Both the position numbers and the translations under genes were made by a program. Below are positions 22,056 through 26,685 of a stretch of DNA of 32,000 nt, in pieces. Every line of letters starts with the position of its first letter. Position 1 is the first letter of the stretch. Under the pieces are notes generated by a model that was not told the DNA's origin, did no database searches, and saw only the letters and a program-made list of their open reading frames with translations. This stretch comes from an uncultured archaeon. GTDB lineage: Archaea > Asgardarchaeota > Thorarchaeia > Thorarchaeales > Thorarchaeaceae. Location: NCBI GenBank assembly GCA_964354495.1, contig CAYHAA010000016.1:21034-53033 (forward strand), read 5' to 3'.

Positions 22056-22184
22056 ATCTATGAGAATGTCCATAGCCTCCATAAGTCTATTCCCAGAATG
22101 TGCATTGAAGCCATCAACGATTTGTTTAATTGTAAAGTTTCGGTGAAGTTCCTTGGACGTAGTGTTCAACGGGGTGAATCCATC

Positions 22185-22565
22185 ATGGGCGATCCTGTAA
22201 TGGATGCATACACAATGGCGTATAACAGTTCAGGGAACATGATACAAGCCTTTGGGGTAATTACTGAAGGTGGGCAAGTCCTGTGGCAAAGCAACAACTG
22301 GGATCTGACTGCCGATGCCAGTGGCCTCATCTCTGCAGTGAAGTCACGTAGTCCTGCAGTCACACAGAACAACATTCGCTACTCCACAATGAGATCCACA
22401 CCTGAGAGTCTTGTCGCCCGCAATGTTCAGGGAAATGGAATCTTGATCCTGGCCAAGATTGAGGGTCAGAAGTGGGTTGTGGCATGGAGTGCACCGAACG
22501 CTCAGCCTGATGGTGTCTATGTCGATGTAGACCGGGCTGCAAAGGCACTCAAGGGCAGAATTTGA
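22185..22565 (+). CDS. Asgard-type profilin, copy 1
   Basis: 126 aa from ATG 22185 (SD GGGGTGA). QAFGVI...VLWQSNNWDL, IRY...TPESLVARNVQGNG and AWSAPNAQPDGVYVDVDRAAKAL match the pattern of Loki/Heimdall/Thor profilins as I recall it (QTENWD, GIKY, ERLxxTNxxGKGH). Confidence 0.85.
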   Translation: MGDPVMDAYTMAYNSSGNMIQAFGVITEGGQVLWQSNNWDLTADASGLISAVKSRSPAVTQNNIRYSTMRSTPESLVARNVQGNGILILAKIEGQKWVVAWSAPNAQPDGVYVDVDRAAKALKGRI

Positions 22566-22602
22566 TGGTGCTGCCCACGTGAGGGGAACTGTAGAATAAT
22601 AT

Positions 22603-22620
22603 GGGAGAATGATTTCTCCC
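22603..22620. promoter_or_regulatory. Perfect 7-bp inverted repeat between the two profilin genes
   Basis: GGGAGAA-TGAT-TTCTCCC, downstream of AT-rich AATAATAT and just upstream of the profilin-2 SD (GGAGG). Confidence 0.4.
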
Positions 22621-22639
22621 TTGCTCAGGAGGCCGTGAC

Positions 22640-23014
22640 ATGGAGTCTGCCATCAGCCGTCAATGGTATCAGCTGTACACGAACAATCCGAAAATACAGG
22701 CATTTGCTGTAGCCAAAGGAGACCAGGTCGTTTGGCAGACTGAAAACTGGAATCTACTCGACGACATCAAACAGATAGTCAATGCTCCAAAGGAGGAGGC
22801 AAGCAAGGTCTCTGTTGGCGGAATCAAGTACAAGCGAATTGCCTCTACCCTAGATGCTTACTTGGGAACTGCCCCCGATGGCAAGGGGCATCTGTTGATG
22901 GCGCGGATAAATGAAGGAGGCTGGGCCATCGCTTGGGCTGAGTCCACTTCGGTTCCTGAACTGGCACTTGTTGATCTCGCCAAGGCCGCAATACACCTCA
23001 GCGGCGATGTATAG
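22640..23014 (+). CDS. Asgard-type profilin, copy 2 (divergent paralog)
   Basis: 124 aa with IQAFAV...VVWQTENWNL, VGGIKY, GKGHLLMARI and AWA...P..ALVDLAKAA. SD GGAGG lies 7 nt upstream. Confidence 0.82.
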   Translation: MESAISRQWYQLYTNNPKIQAFAVAKGDQVVWQTENWNLLDDIKQIVNAPKEEASKVSVGGIKYKRIASTLDAYLGTAPDGKGHLLMARINEGGWAIAWAESTSVPELALVDLAKAAIHLSGDV

Positions 23015-23029
23015 TCTAGAATGCGTTCT

Positions 23030-23776
23030 CTATGGGACTGATTCACTTGCGAACAGAATATCTCGTGTCTTCAAGAGCACATCGCGATATTCTTTTGACC
23101 CCAGAGAATAGATCTGTAGCAAGGTCTCATAGATCTTGAGAACTTCCTTATCTGCTACATCGCCTTTTACAAGGTCGGCAATCTTCGTTCGCCATTCTGC
23201 TTGCATCAACTCGCCCTTCATCACTAACTCTTGGAGTTCCTTACGCTTCTCCTTGGGAATCTTTAGATCAAAGTTTGCAATCATGGTTGTGATGAAGGAC
23301 TCCACCATCTTTGCCAAGGTTGATGCTCCACCAGCCCATTCACCCTTGGTCAAGACAAAGCCCTTTGCTGTGCGACGCCAGTAATCTGTTGTGCGCTTTC
23401 CTGTGGTCACGGTTCCATACTTGATGACATATCCGCCTTTTTCCAGCGTAGGTAGATGGTGATAGACTTGGTTCTTGGATATCTCAATGTCAGGACCACA
23501 ACAATCTGTGGACAGCTTCACTATCTCGATAACACTGAGAGCATCACGCTTCAGTTCTCTCACTCTGATGATTTTGTCTCCATTCTTGTCCACGCTTTCT
23601 GTGGTCACGGTGTCGTTGACGCCTTCTCTCAAGACCTGTAGAATCTGATATCTCACGGGCTCATCCAAGATAACAGCTCGTTCCTGATCTGTTACGAAGA
23701 CAATCTCTTTCTGCGGTCTTCTTCCCTCGTCCGTTAGAACGATTCCCTTCAGGCTATCTGTGATCTCATCACCCAT
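23030..23776 (-). CDS. ArsR-like winged-helix transcriptional regulator with a C-terminal helical domain
   Basis: EPVRYQILQVL...LSVIEIVKL...SKNQVYHHLPTLEKGGYV...YWRRTA. A Cys-Cys pair (STDCCG) just before the recognition helix may be a sensor site. Confidence 0.8.
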   Translation of the reverse strand: MGDEITDSLKGIVLTDEGRRPQKEIVFVTDQERAVILDEPVRYQILQVLREGVNDTVTTESVDKNGDKIIRVRELKRDALSVIEIVKLSTDCCGPDIEISKNQVYHHLPTLEKGGYVIKYGTVTTGKRTTDYWRRTAKGFVLTKGEWAGGASTLAKMVESFITTMIANFDLKIPKEKRKELQELVMKGELMQAEWRTKIADLVKGDVADKEVLKIYETLLQIYSLGSKEYRDVLLKTRDILFASESVP

Positions 23777-23902: not shown

Positions 23903-23954
23903 ATTTAAAATTATTGGTAAATGCTTAGCCATTAAACCATTTGTCTGGCAAACG
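23903..23954 (-). promoter_or_regulatory. TATA-like box for the ArsR-like transcript plus a degenerate operator copy
   Basis: TTTTAAAT (minus, 23910-23903). CATTTGT-CTG-GCAAACG (23938-23954) matches the 24024-24040 palindrome arms at 10 of 14 positions. Confidence 0.4.
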
Positions 23955-24023: not shown

Positions 24024-24046
24024 GGTTTGTCACACAAACCTTATAT
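24024..24046 (+). promoter_or_regulatory. Operator palindrome abutting the TATA box of the micro-ORF transcript
   Basis: GGTTTGT-CAC-ACAAACC (perfect 7-bp arms) is directly followed by TTATAT (24041-24046). The first ATG is 34 nt downstream. Confidence 0.6.
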
Positions 24047-24079
24047 GTGATTGGTGCATACGTCAACACGTGAACTACT

Positions 24080-24187
24080 ATGAATCACAGGAAGAACACT
24101 CTCACCTACTATGGAACATGGAACGAAAAGATGGCTCGAGTCTACACACTTGATGCCATTGGATATGCGTACGTATACAGGAGGTAG
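24080..24187 (+). CDS. Micro-ORF A, 35 aa (MNHRKNTLTYYGTWNEKMARVYTLDAIGYAYVYRR)
   Basis: Correctly spaced downstream of the TATA box. It shares the C-terminal DAIxYAYxYR motif with ORF B, with synonymous codon differences. Confidence 0.65.
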   Translation: MNHRKNTLTYYGTWNEKMARVYTLDAIGYAYVYRR

Positions 24188-24192
24188 AAAAC

Positions 24193-24282
24193 ATGGCACT
24201 CGCGAAACAAACAAAGAGAAAGGATGAATCTAGGAAGCAGATCTCTACAGATGCTATAACCTATGCATACATGTACAGGTAG
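24193..24282 (+). CDS. Micro-ORF B, 29 aa (MALAKQTKRKDESRKQISTDAITYAYMYR)
   Basis: A strong SD AGGAGGT (24179-24185) lies 7 nt before the ATG. It shares the DAIxYAYxYR motif with ORF A. Confidence 0.7.
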   Translation: MALAKQTKRKDESRKQISTDAITYAYMYR

Positions 24283-24288
24283 ATTGCT

Positions 24289-24402
24289 ATGAGTAGAGAA
24301 GACGAAACTACCATGTCCGACTGCCGCCAGGTTGTCTTGATGGAAGCTCCGATGCGCCCATCCGTGACCACAGAAGAGGTGCTCCTGTGGGAAGCCACTT
24401 GA
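24289..24402 (+). CDS. Micro-ORF C, 37 aa (MSREDETTMSDCRQVVLMEAPMRPSVTTEEVLLWEAT)
   Basis: Starts 6 nt after the ORF B stop, with a weak SD (AGGT). It lacks the shared motif, so support is positional only. Confidence 0.4.
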   Translation: MSREDETTMSDCRQVVLMEAPMRPSVTTEEVLLWEAT

Positions 24403-24542
24403 GCGCTTCCATACTCTTTCTAATGGATATTCACAATAGATTCAAGGCATTCTTCTAGATTGCTCTCTTATTGACCACTAATTCTTAACACTTGGCAGCA
24501 CCCGCAGAAATACAAATCGTGAGATCTGACCGGCTTTTGCAA

Positions 24543-25352
24543 TCACTTCTTGAAGACCATCTGGTAGAAGGTTTCGTTCATGATATAGGTGATTTCGACA
24601 TTGGACGCCTTCTCAGGGAGGAACTCAAGGGGTGGACGTGCTGCGAAGAGTGAGTTCGTCTTGATGATCTCCTTTCCCTTCTCAGTATTCCTCATTCGTG
24701 GTGACAGTCCCTCATCTATCACGATTACCATGCCCTCGCTTCTAGCTATCCTCAGCATCTCCTTCAGAGCTCCATGGATATCCGAGAAGGTGTTGATACC
24801 CCCCGTATGAAGTACAATATCGAAGAAATTGCTTTGATATGGGATGTTGAACACACTACCGTGGGTCAGGCTGGCATCGATCCCCAACTCTGCCATTTTT
24901 CGTTTAGCCACGCCCAGCATTCGTGTTGAGAGATCCATGCCATGAAGGTTGAATCTGCCCATCTGGCCCTTGAACCGGTTGTGAAGAGCGATAAAATTGG
25001 CTGCTGTACCGAGGCTGACATCGATAATTCTGGTCGGCCCTTCAATGGGAACGAACATAGCGAGTCGTTCTCGCTCCTTCATCATATTGATCCCAAGCCA
25101 GTCATCATACTGCTTGACCAATTCATCGTATGACTCGGCCATCTCATCATATTTCTTGATCCACTTTGCATCCTTTGCCCCTATAGGGGGATAGACAAGT
25201 GAGAGTATCTCACTATGTATGGGCCACCCATGCCCCTTCTCACAGATTATCGGCCGCTCTTCGACACTCTCATTCGATGCAGACTCTCTGCTGAATTGAA
25301 GCTTCTTTCCGCATTGAGGGCACTTGAGAGCAGCAAGATGAGGTTCTTTCAT
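24543..25352 (-). CDS. Class I SAM-dependent methyltransferase (UbiE/Methyltransf_11-like) with an N-terminal Trm112-like Zn-ribbon
   Basis: CPQCG...CEKGH.WPI N-terminus, motif I IDVSLGTAAN, GMDLSTRML, HGSVFNIPY..NFFDIV and EMLRIAR..G.VIVIDE. Confidence 0.85.
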   Translation of the reverse strand: MKEPHLAALKCPQCGKKLQFSRESASNESVEERPIICEKGHGWPIHSEILSLVYPPIGAKDAKWIKKYDEMAESYDELVKQYDDWLGINMMKERERLAMFVPIEGPTRIIDVSLGTAANFIALHNRFKGQMGRFNLHGMDLSTRMLGVAKRKMAELGIDASLTHGSVFNIPYQSNFFDIVLHTGGINTFSDIHGALKEMLRIARSEGMVIVIDEGLSPRMRNTEKGKEIIKTNSLFAARPPLEFLPEKASNVEITYIMNETFYQMVFKK

Positions 25353-26298: not shown

Positions 26299-26329
26299 TT
26301 TTAAGTTGATTGTCACTTTCGGAGTGACA
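26299..26329 (-). promoter_or_regulatory. Operator TGTCAC-N7-GTGACA (copy 1) plus TATA-like box upstream of the TrmB gene
   Basis: TGTCACT-TTCGG-AGTGACA at 26311-26329, with minus-strand TTAAAA at 26304-26299, 6 nt away. Confidence 0.6.
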
Positions 26330-26654: not shown

Positions 26655-26685
26655 TGTCACTCCCTTCGTGACACCAGCATAATAT
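26655..26685 (+). promoter_or_regulatory. Operator TGTCAC-N7-GTGACA (copy 2) plus TATA-like element upstream of the ABC operon
   Basis: TGTCACT-CCCTT-CGTGACA at 26655-26673, followed 5 nt later by ATAATAT (26679-26685). Confidence 0.6.

Follow-up and report, generated by a model that had tools for sequence, protein, structure and literature searches.

The window analysed here is a 32,000-nt stretch of contig CAYHAA010000016.1 (assembly GCA_964354495.1) from an uncultured archaeon of the family Thorarchaeaceae. A direct check of the sequence shows two long ORFs, bounded at 23776 and 24543, that leave a 766-bp gap between them. The gap lies between a divergent gene for a wHTH regulator and a convergent gene for a class I SAM methyltransferase. 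Inside it are three tandem micro-ORFs, A, B and C, together with the elements thought to control them (Table 1).

Table 1. Features of the micro-ORF locus and its flanks, with positions counted from the first letter of the window.
Feature	Positions	Strand	Description
wHTH regulator	23030-23776	-	248 aa, divergent; presumed repressor of the micro-ORF operon
Degenerate second operator copy	23937-23954		CCATTTG-N5-CAAACG; regulator side of the divergent intergenic region
Operator (predicted)	24024-24040		perfect palindrome GGTTTGT-CAC-ACAAACC (GGTTTGTCACACAAACC) at the BRE position
TATA box	24041-24046	+	TTATAT, 34 nt upstream of the A start codon (ATG); position conserved in type-I loci
Micro-ORF A	24080-24187	+	35 aa, net charge +4; C-terminal end LDAIGYAYVYRR / TLDAIGYAYVYRR
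Shine-Dalgarno (SD) sequence for B	24179-24185	+	AGGAGGT, embedded in the Arg, Arg and stop codons that end A
Micro-ORF B	24193-24282	+	29 aa, net charge +4; C-terminal end TDAITYAYMYR (ISTDAITYAYMYR)
Micro-ORF C	24289-24402	+	37 aa; variable N-terminus, conserved acidic tail TTEEVLLWEAT
Terminator-like hairpin	24376-24409	+	covers the final codons of C, stop codon included; -21.4 kcal/mol, z = -3.4
Pyrimidine/T-rich tract	24415-24421	+	3' of the hairpin; likely transcript end
Class I SAM methyltransferase	24543-25352	-	269 aa, convergent; N-terminal Trm112-like Zn-ribbon

A and B have in common the C-terminal motif [ST]-T-[DE]-A-[IL]-x-[YH]-[AS]-Y-x-Y-R, also written S-T-[DE]-A-[IL]-x-[YH]-[AS]-Y-x-Y-R(R). 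In the window 8 of 10 motif residues are identical between the two, a match far beyond chance, and the DNA copies of the motif (24152-24181 and 24250-24279) carry synonymous third-position differences (GCC/GCT, ATT/ATA, GCG/GCA). Judged by sequence, B is a paralogue of A in this motif. The N-terminal parts of both peptides are basic, and the net charge of A and B ranges from +2 to +9 across loci. Both are hydrophilic: inspection of the sequences found no hydrophobic stretch, signal peptide or double-glycine leader, no Cys and no Gly-Gly-type cleavage site in either. An earlier sequence-only reading of this DNA had described the gap, the span and lengths of A and B, the motif identity with its synonymous differences, the basic N-termini, a TATA box 34 nt before A and an SD sequence 7 nt before B, and all of these were found as described. 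Its tandem pair of micro-ORFs stands; what it had missed is the third micro-ORF, C, and the existence of paralogous loci.

The peptides are restricted to one family of Asgard archaea. A degenerate DNA pattern for [DE]A[ILV]x[YH]AYxYR has seven matches in this genome and was found in 39 of 400 Asgard genomes, all of a single family, while the reversed pattern was found in none of the 400. The motif is present in 22 of 24 congeneric genomes and in 38 of 85 genomes of Thorarchaeaceae, and it is absent from all 315 genomes searched from 32 other Asgard families. A search of 1.84 billion proteins with an HMM of ORF A returned no more than 19 proteins, all small and members of the same protein family. 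An S-T-extended form of the motif pattern had no match on viral contigs. A search of sequencing runs found no RNA run with the locus, and three DNA metagenome runs contained only low-depth contigs of related strains.

Within the family the frame, stop codons and spacing are kept in more than 50 distinct loci from at least 15 genera, and the A-B-C arrangement, which many genera share, is invariant in 20 distinct triplets. Orthologues of A were found in 19 other distinct loci, and all of them end in YRR or FRR. The peptides are consistently 29-38 aa long. Conservation in A and B is highest over the C-terminal 12 residues, and the N-terminus is variable: dN/dS is 0.38 over the whole of A and 0.13 over its last 12 codons, with corresponding values of 0.24 and 0.15 for B. 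The motif values were obtained at a pS of 0.62-0.65, which means that synonymous sites are near saturation. A and B are genuine coding genes. The earlier proposal of an unannotated protein-coding family of small Tyr-rich peptides is thus supported by the conservation of frame, stops and spacing and by the low dN/dS of the motif, and homologues with a conserved frame do exist. The possibility that the region is a frameshifted remnant of one longer repeat protein was ruled out. Stops and gap lengths (5 or 6 nt) are kept from genus to genus, and the frame relation between A and B varies with the gap, yet both ORFs are intact.

In 50 distinct loci micro-ORF C follows B or comes straight after A. 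The consensus of its tail is [DE]-[VI]-L-x-[WL]-E-A-T, and the tail is kept despite synonymous changes in the Leu codons (TTA/TTG/CTC/CTT) and the Val codons (GTG/GTA/GTC), with a dN/dS of 0.35. The coding evidence is weaker for C than for A and B because its tail overlaps an RNA hairpin, and part of the conservation of the tail lies at the RNA level. A stable hairpin is present in all 50 distinct loci, with registers shifted in some genera, and the stop codon of C falls within its 3' arm. Compensatory changes were seen in the stem (GTG..CAC→GTA..TAC and CTC..TGA→CTT..TAA). A clear T-tract follows the hairpin in 43 of 50 loci; the TCTTTCT of the window is weaker than most. This hairpin over the end of C is the only RNA-level element detected. 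The locus has no Rfam match at E up to 1 and A and B are conserved at the codon level, so a known structured RNA in place of coding genes was rejected.

The three ORFs are separated by 5-6 nt, and the SD sequence of each downstream ORF sits in the last codons of the preceding one. The junction between A and B, (A/C)GGAGGTAR-N5/6-ATG, is kept in 20 of 20 loci. In the same number of loci the stop codon of B is TAG, inside ACAGGTAGAT, which doubles as the SD sequence for C, and the stop codon of C is TGA in 19 of 20. Recoding of TAG (Pyl-type read-through) was considered, since the TAG of B is invariant and mostly in frame with C. It was rejected on three grounds: TAG ends more of the long ORFs in this genome than any other stop codon (42%), ARAGORN (no intron mode; only 14 tRNAs detected) gave no suppressor tRNA besides tRNA-Sec, and the TAG of B falls within the SD sequence for C.

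The fixed stops are also what would be seen if the products were cis-acting nascent peptides. Ribosomes would stall on their C-terminal residues at the stops of A and B, which would mask the SD sequence of the next ORF; at C, a stalled ribosome would keep the terminator hairpin melted and cause antisense transcription into the convergent methyltransferase gene. As in the arrest peptides TnaC, SecM and MifM, only the last 10-12 residues are conserved and each stop lies inside or beside the next SD sequence or, for C, in the hairpin. A length of 29-38 aa is also about the capacity of the exit tunnel. However, in none of the locus types is the operon followed by a co-directional gene, so that there is nothing downstream to regulate in cis, and type-II loci in C3 stop after B with no C ORF. 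The fixed stops are explained more simply by the SD sequence (AGGT-A-GAT) together with hairpin pairing, and pairing fits because the stop of C covaries with a Leu codon in the compensatory change given above. We know of no leader-peptide control of the ribosome-arrest kind in archaea, and this reading is quite unlikely. A Tyr-codon attenuation leader was rejected as well: the non-Tyr residues of the motif (S, T, D, A, I, A) are conserved to the same degree, and the operon is not followed by a biosynthetic gene.

Upstream of A, a GGTTKG-N5-CAAACC palindrome lies directly against the TATA box (17-nt offset) in at least 15 of 24 orthologous loci, which come from many genera. Many of the orthologous intergenic regions contain extra GTTTG-N5/6-CAAAC copies. 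Elsewhere in this genome there is only one perfect copy of the operator, at C1:548710. The regulator is present in 79 of 86 genomes of the family and adjoins the micro-ORFs in all 10 type-I loci compared and in 17 of 20 further sampled genomes. It forms a lineage-specific orthologous group, and a search with this query detected it in none of 5 genomes from other Asgard families. Pfam matches are weak (HTH_20/PadR). The AF2 model (pLDDT 87) has a wHTH followed by four C-terminal helices and no TPR domain, and its best PDB matches are 1uly and 2cwe, the P. horikoshii PH1932 'ArsR homologue' (E 9e-8, TM 0.51-0.65). Like PH1932 and the archaeal ArsR-type wHTH repressors, the regulator has a wHTH and then a C-terminal helical domain, and a palindromic operator at BRE/TATA is the usual arrangement in archaeal repressors; the comparison holds for the regulator only. 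Sequence identity to PH1932 is only 16-18%, and an extra beta-hairpin and an N-terminal extension are present here.

Small peptide genes that adjoin a transcription factor, with an ABC exporter (4 of 10 loci) or an MFS transporter (C1 locus) nearby, could encode secreted quorum-sensing-like pro-peptides that the neighbouring regulator detects, as in RRNPP systems. This is extremely unlikely. The peptides have no signal peptide, hydrophobic segment or double-glycine leader, and the regulator combines its wHTH with a helical dimerisation-type domain and not with a TPR or other peptide-binding domain. From genus to genus the C-terminus stays conserved, at the dN/dS of 0.13-0.15, and has not diversified into pherotypes. 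In addition, the paralogous loci have neither a regulator nor a transporter beside them.

These paralogous loci repeat the A-B-C layout with its 5-6 nt gaps; four clear examples and one degenerate one are found in this genome. Copies have been duplicated up to five times per genome and stand under a second operator. This type-II operator, GTCAC-N5-GTGAC plus a half-site, differs from the type-I operator; TrmB-like paralogues are candidates for the factor that binds it. Of 30 type-II sites, 22 precede the peptides and 8 precede a PF04519 bactofilin gene (eight species). The bactofilin gene of this genome is at C4:55921-57162. The link to bactofilin is a shared promoter, seen only at paralogous type-II loci and only within one genus. 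Type-II and type-III loci have no enzyme neighbour in common, and some loci lack C and consist of A and B. Synteny of the type-I locus is stable over at least 10 genera, and the locus of the window is the ancestral one.

The presence of several copies per genome in different contexts would suit a toxin-antidote-like module. In such a module A and B would be harmful cationic aromatic peptides that act on nucleic acid or membranes, C would neutralise them through its acidic tail, and the repressor would keep the whole module off. The charges are complementary (+2 to +9 in A and B, always -2 or -3 in the C tail) and the palindromic operators suggest tight control. However, the charge of the whole C peptide ranges from -6 to +2, and C is missing from some loci. 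The peptides are not hydrophobic, they have no PADLOC or PHROG match, the motif is on no viral contig, and the synteny of the type-I locus shows that it is not mobile. A toxin-antidote function is therefore very unlikely.

The convergent methyltransferase matches Methyltransf_11/25 in Pfam, with a weak Trm112_arch match over residues 1-52. Like the regulator it is specific to this lineage: all of its named homologues are from Thorarchaeota, and 5 genomes from other Asgard families yielded no orthologue. The triad of regulator, peptides and methyltransferase is present in 30 of 39 regulator loci. The gene is convergent and not co-transcribed with the micro-ORFs, and synteny is the only link between them. 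No radical-SAM, YcaO, LanM, P450, RRE/PqqD or protease gene is conserved beside any of the three locus types.

The co-inherited methyltransferase raises the question of whether the peptides are RiPP-like precursors. The Tyr-rich core of A, B and the orphan paralogues would then be modified, for example through methylation by the neighbouring enzyme or through cross-linking by an enzyme encoded elsewhere, and released as a natural product or cofactor. Several features resemble RiPP clusters such as those of prochlorosins, PqqA and MftA: tandem short ORFs, a common Tyr-containing C-terminal segment, extra copies elsewhere in the genome and one tailoring-type enzyme beside the main locus. Prochlorosin precursors are scattered orphans served by one enzyme. 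The methyltransferase has a weak PDB sequence match to the lanthipeptide methyltransferase LahSB (E 1e-5), and an ABC-2 exporter lies near 4 of 10 loci. On the other hand, the LahSB match holds only at the level of generic class I methyltransferases, and the exporter is missing even from one congeneric locus. No core-modifying enzyme, RRE or protease is conserved at any locus type, the methyltransferase is not part of the transcript, and A and B contain neither Cys nor a Gly-Gly-type cleavage site. The core is conserved and the 'leader' variable, which is the reverse of most RiPP families. The precursor reading is therefore unlikely.

Searches with the peptides themselves found no known relatives. 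A, B and C had no match in Pfam, NCBIfam, PADLOC or PHROG, PDB profile searches of all three were empty at E up to 10, an ESM Atlas feature search with A and C gave no usable match, and no description of such peptides was found in the literature. The earlier statement that no described family carries this motif is borne out by these results. In an AF2 model of an artificial B-TAG-C read-through (pTM 0.32), the helix of the B motif has a pLDDT of 93 and the C tail of about 75. The variable motif positions x6 and x10 are spaced i, i+4 and fall on one helix face. The conserved small residues have the same spacing, with an invariant Ala followed four residues on by Ala or Ser. Co-folding of A, B and C in one complex gave a score of 0.04, which counts neither for nor against contact between them.

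The last three residues of B resemble an HbYX C-terminus, by which B might dock in the 20S alpha ring like the C-terminus of PAN and open the proteasome gate. B ends in [M/L]-Y-R in 13 of 20 loci (M-Y-R in the window), the PAN of this organism ends in M-Y-C and one of its Cdc48 proteins in M-Y-G. PAN, Cdc48 and PbaB are the systems compared here; the PAN of M. jannaschii ends in LYR, and short HbYX peptides alone open the 20S gate in vitro. This role is scarcely probable. A ends in Y-R-R or F-R-R in 20 of 20 loci, which puts the aromatic residue in the wrong register, and many B paralogues or B peptides of other genera end in YRR, YSR, FRR, YKEV or YKQV. The Hb position is Thr or Lys (T/K-Y-R) in 5 of 20 loci, and the ends differ again in the remaining 2. 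A motif anchored by its carboxylate would not tolerate such register shifts, and the terminal Arg codons double as an SD sequence. The conserved motif also reaches 10 residues upstream of the tripeptide, so that the S-T-D-A-I part, like peptide C, would be left unexplained.

The explanation that we prefer, although we consider it evenly balanced between right and wrong, is a Thorarchaeaceae-specific, repressor-controlled operon of three translationally coupled micro-proteins, with the peptides acting as intracellular helical short-motif micro-proteins. The regulator would bind the palindrome and block TFB/TBP until some signal comes. All three peptides would then be made from one mRNA of about 350-370 nt, starting at roughly 24068-24072 and ending at roughly 24410-24425. 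The cationic A and B are probably disordered for the most part, with an N-capped (S-T-D) helix as their sole structured part; this helix would have a small-xxx-small core flanked by three Tyr. C would bear an acidic amphipathic helix. An intracellular role is preferred because the peptides have no hydrophobic or signal segment and because A and B are positively charged and the C tail negatively. Inside the cell, the helices may pack against a conserved partner, and this could be the methyltransferase inherited with the locus, the bactofilin that is co-regulated with the paralogues, the regulator, or another of the peptides. Among the three functions offered by the sequence-only reading, short linear-motif effectors fits this picture best; signalling fits poorly, and RiPP precursors would have no co-located core-modifying enzyme. 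A more specific version, in which the Tyr-rich micro-proteins are dedicated partners (substrates, activators or caps) of the Zn-ribbon/Trm112-like methyltransferase and of bactofilin, is a possibility worth naming but on the unlikely side.

The closest parallels to such an operon are the zinc-finger micro-proteins of haloarchaea and the small proteins that regulate larger enzymes in Methanosarcina. These too are shorter than 50 codons and missed by annotation pipelines, selection on them is likewise visible only by comparative genomics, and binding to a larger partner is probable in both cases. A, B and C nevertheless have no relationship to them by sequence, Pfam, NCBIfam, PDB or Atlas. They contain no Cys or zinc motif, and they form three coupled ORFs in which only the C-terminal motifs are conserved. 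In addition, they have a dedicated (predicted) repressor and operator, and are confined to one Asgard family.

No known organisms are more closely related to eukaryotes than the Asgard archaea. Thorarchaeia are uncultured, and their known biology therefore comes from annotated genes. The locus described here is a gene set skipped by annotation pipelines yet near-universal in one family and under strong purifying selection, with a predicted repressor, operator and terminator of its own, and it provides a testable example of hidden Asgard micro-proteins. Two cis-regulatory codes are defined with their regulons (GGTTTG-N5-CAAACC at the TATA box, and GTCAC-N5-GTGAC plus a half-site), and concrete candidate partners of the peptides are supplied. 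If the methyltransferase and bactofilin are indeed the partners, the peptides would add to Asgard cell biology a level of regulation by micro-proteins that has not been seen before, and modulation of the methyltransferase or of a cytoskeletal polymer by them would be a new regulatory principle for the lineage. Otherwise, they would still be a family-specific marker and a caution about intergenic gaps that appear 'empty'.

The 766-bp gap that separates two long ORFs (ends at 23776 and 24543) had been read as holding two micro-ORFs, A and B, with a common Tyr-rich C-terminal motif. This held up: the gap contains no long ORF, the ten-residue motifs share eight residues, and their DNA copies differ at synonymous third positions. 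The expression signals are also in place (TTATAT 34 nt before the ATG of A; AGGAGGT ending 7 nt before that of B). A third micro-ORF, C, absent from the sequence-only reading, starts 6 nt after B. Together they form a conserved, terminator-bounded operon under repressor-type control, which holds the genes of two paralogous micro-proteins, both cationic and Tyr-rich, along with the micro-ORF C.

Features of the operon, its neighbourhood and related sites (bare positions: window; C-numbers with positions: contigs of the same genome; L-numbers: fetched loci)
Feature	Position	Description
Profilin-like genes	22098-23014	Two in tandem
wHTH regulator	23030-23776 (-)	Divergent
Degenerate operator copy	23937-23954	
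Type-I operator	24024-24040	Perfect GGTTTGT-CAC-ACAAACC
ORF A	24080-24187	35 aa; ends LDAIGYAYVYRR; dN/dS whole ORF 0.38, last 12 codons 0.13
ORF B	24193-24282	29 aa; ends TDAITYAYMYR; dN/dS whole ORF 0.24, last 12 codons 0.15
B-C junction	24280-24291	TAG ATY NNN ATG
ORF C	24289-24402	37 aa; tail TTEEVLLWEAT; dN/dS whole ORF 0.54, last 12 codons 0.35
Hairpin	24376-24409	Last C codons, stop codon and following bases; -21.4 kcal/mol, z = -3.4
Hairpin and T-tract	24376-24421	
SAM methyltransferase	24543-25352 (-)	Convergent
GTCAC-N7-GTGAC elements	26312-26328; 26656-26672	Before TrmB-like gene and ABC exporter operon
Second type-I operator	C1:548710-548726 (L061 ~2211-2233)	Perfect, with TTATAT
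MFS transporter	L061:2517-4055	512 aa
Zinc-ribbon micro-ORF	C3 ~181300-181410 (L065)	36 aa; CxxC...CPxC
Bactofilin-domain gene	C4:55921-57162	With type-II promoter, C4:55832-57162 (L062/L095)
Degenerate peptide locus	C9 ~82150-82354 (L063)	A-like ORF ending ...STDAIAYAFLSSLR, then unrelated 42-aa ORF

Coding selection was measured on 20 distinct A-B-C triplets, with the last 12 codons also scored separately. Synonymous divergence is near saturation (pS ~0.6) and non-synonymous divergence in the last 12 codons of A and B is 0.17-0.18; the resulting dN/dS values support the earlier proposal of an unannotated peptide family. Decay of one longer gene is excluded because the spacing of 5 or 6 nt puts A and B in different relative frames from locus to locus, yet both remain open. 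An Rfam search of the region found nothing. The amino-acid motif of C outlasts changes in the register of the 3' hairpin and synonymous Leu/Val switches in the tail (TTA, TTG, CTC, CTT; GTG, GTA, GTC, ATA). It was therefore retained as a probable coding gene, less certain than A and B.

The suggested motif search of Asgard genomes returned homologues. A degenerate DNA pattern for [DE]A[ILV]x[YH]AYxYR (the strict pattern) was run on 400 genomes, with the reversed pattern as control. It matched 22 of 24 genomes of the same genus, 38 of 85 of the same family and none of 315 from 32 other Asgard families; the control gave no match in the 400. A profile of A detected just 19 matches (33-49 aa) among 1.84 billion representative proteins, all plainly of the same family and either unnamed or labelled 'hypothetical', and the motif was found in no viral contig. 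By these searches the operon is specific to Thorarchaeaceae and has no known relatives. To our knowledge, Thorarchaeia have never been cultured.

The fetched loci hardly vary in layout: A has 35 aa, B 28-30 aa and C 35-40 aa, with 5-6 nt between A and B and usually 6 nt between B and C. When the organism's own genome (3.3 Mb) was scanned in six frames, contigs C17 (A-B-C) and C3 (A-B) proved to carry this arrangement too; copies on C1 and C9 are weaker. The C9 copy, a fifth and degenerate locus, has an intact type-II promoter.

Loci of the window's kind (type I) share the promoter ATGGTTTG-N5/6-CAAACC-TTATAT; at least 15 of the 24 orthologues, which come from many genera, have the palindrome immediately next to the TATA box. 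In type II, an A2 ORF beginning MALTTNNRN... is followed by one or two B-like ORFs, with or without C, and a different, equally conserved promoter is used (GTCAC-N3-TTGTGAC, TTCAT-NN-TGTG, TATATATAC). Directly upstream of it, several genomes carry a zinc-ribbon micro-ORF (also in L003 and L013). Type III has an extra micro-ORF with an LESLYxDY motif upstream of the A/B-like ORF. A fourth kind of micro-ORF, D (29-42 aa, ...(T/H)-(L)-E-S-L-Y-x-(D/E)-(Y/F)...), lies upstream of A/B-type ORFs in L004, L017, L019, L026, L052, L053 and the second cluster of L022, giving D-A-B-C operons.

The junctions point to coupled translation. At A-B the sequence is (A/C)GG-AGG-TAR-N5/6-ATG, so that the Shine-Dalgarno (SD) sequence for B consists of the two Arg codons at the end of A. 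At B-C nearly all loci have ACAGG-TAG-ATY-NNN-ATG. All 20 loci have TAG as the B stop codon, and in most of them C follows in the frame of B, an arrangement that would allow read-through to a B-C fusion. Read-through is not supported, since the fixed TAG is most simply explained as part of a predicted SD for C, AGGU(A)GAUC.

A hairpin over the end of C was present in all 50 distinct loci examined, 43 of them with a following T-tract. Compensatory changes are frequent (e.g. GTG..CAC to GTA..TAC), the C stop codon covaries with a Leu codon (CTC..TGA to CTT..TAA), and in a few genera the stem is made from different codons. The hairpin is most simply read as the operon terminator, and its covariation across a coding region and 3' UTR is an unusually clean archaeal case. 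It also explains the fixed C stop codon (TGA in 19/20 loci) and the lower synonymous rate of the C tail. Arrest or leader peptides, for which fixed stop codons might be a sign, are a weaker explanation, because SD and hairpin account for these codons and there is no downstream target to regulate.

The neighbours of 24 loci were clustered. A divergent wHTH regulator of ~250 aa flanks the type-I locus in 10/10 loci and a convergent SAM methyltransferase lies on the other side in 9/10; the TrmB-plus-ABC-2-exporter block by the window's copy occurs in just 4/10 and is missing even in one congeneric genome. The regulator was found in 79 of 86 family genomes (15 of 16 genera). Among 20 sampled genomes without a strict-pattern match, 17 have A/B- and C-like micro-ORFs next to it, some as A and C only, others as D-A-B-C. 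The regulator-peptides-methyltransferase triad is complete in 30 of 39 regulator loci. Five genomes of other Asgard families contain no orthologue of regulator or methyltransferase, and all named methyltransferase homologues are from Thorarchaeota. Judging from this synteny and family-limited occurrence, the triad is therefore a family-level innovation, inherited together. A toxin-antidote module fits these loci less well: synteny is stable, some loci lack C, and there is no family match. The profilin-like genes upstream of the regulator form a mutual BLAST cluster (one weakly matches PF00235) and are syntenic with the locus in 8 compared loci.

The regulator model (pLDDT 87) combines a winged helix-turn-helix with an inserted beta-hairpin and, at the C-terminus, four helices. 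In structural comparison 1uly/2cwe (P. horikoshii PH1932, 'ArsR homologue', E 9e-8) come out best; the matches to PadR and to the Pyrococcus heat-shock regulator are weaker. The methyltransferase is generic class I (Methyltransf_11/25) with an N-terminal Trm112-like zinc ribbon.

Shared promoters offer leads to a wider regulon; these links are predicted and are not binding evidence. The type-II operator/promoter occurs 37 times within the genus (reversed control 0). Of 30 fetched sites, 22 lie in front of a type-II peptide operon, exactly 60 nt from its ATG, and 8, in eight species, lie in front of the gene for a 413-aa bactofilin-domain protein (PF04519, E 5.5e-12; besides the own genome, L072, L076, L077, L078, L080, L087 and L088). 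This points to a conserved two-member regulon of type-II peptides and bactofilin. The own genome has just one other perfect type-I operator with TATA box, on C1, right after the fourth peptide locus and ~290 nt before an MFS transporter gene; the window's regulator may act there as well. GTCAC-N7-GTGAC occurs twice in the window (0.37 expected). Its half-sites are those of the type-II operator, which has an N5 spacer, and a TrmB-like paralogue may for this reason be the type-II regulator.

A and B have a net positive charge in every case (+2 to +9) and the conserved C tail a negative one (-2 or -3); the charge of the C N-terminus varies. No hydrophobic segment was found in A, B or C. Secreted signals are a weaker reading: leader and TPR-type receptor are both missing, and the C-terminus is kept instead of diversifying. 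A and B contain no Cys. RiPP precursors are also less well supported: the loci have no core-modifying enzyme, and conservation runs opposite to that in most RiPP families.

The invariant A/B residues are two small ones at i and i+4 (Ala, then Ala or Ser), the surrounding Tyr and a preceding S-T-[DE], interpreted as a helix N-cap. The variable positions of the motif, two in number and also spaced i, i+4, would share one helix face. B and C share a frame in most loci, so B-TAG-C was folded, as a computational device only (AF2, TAG=Q, alignment of 18 loci). The helix over the B motif reached pLDDT 93 and that of the C tail ~75, with no confident packing (pTM 0.32). HbYX proteasome openers are suggested by the M/L-Y-R ending of B in 13/20 loci and by the organism's PAN and one Cdc48, which end M-Y-C and M-Y-G, but the register is wrong in A and in many B paralogues, which makes this reading weaker. 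The own PAN ends S-S-M-Y-C and two Cdc48-like ATPases S-M-Y-G and P-G-Y-M (C6:39742-40854, C20, C5), so in this organism the Hb residue of the HbYX motifs is Met or Gly.

Our statements on function are inference wherever they go further than gene structure, selection, synteny and cis-elements. The wHTH protein would sit on the palindrome at the BRE/TATA position, and on its release the three peptides would be produced together. They would work intracellularly, with their C-terminal helices serving as short motifs that bind a conserved partner; candidates are the methyltransferase, the bactofilin and the regulator, or the peptides could bind one another. We consider this scheme the most likely one and give it, as a whole, roughly even chances.
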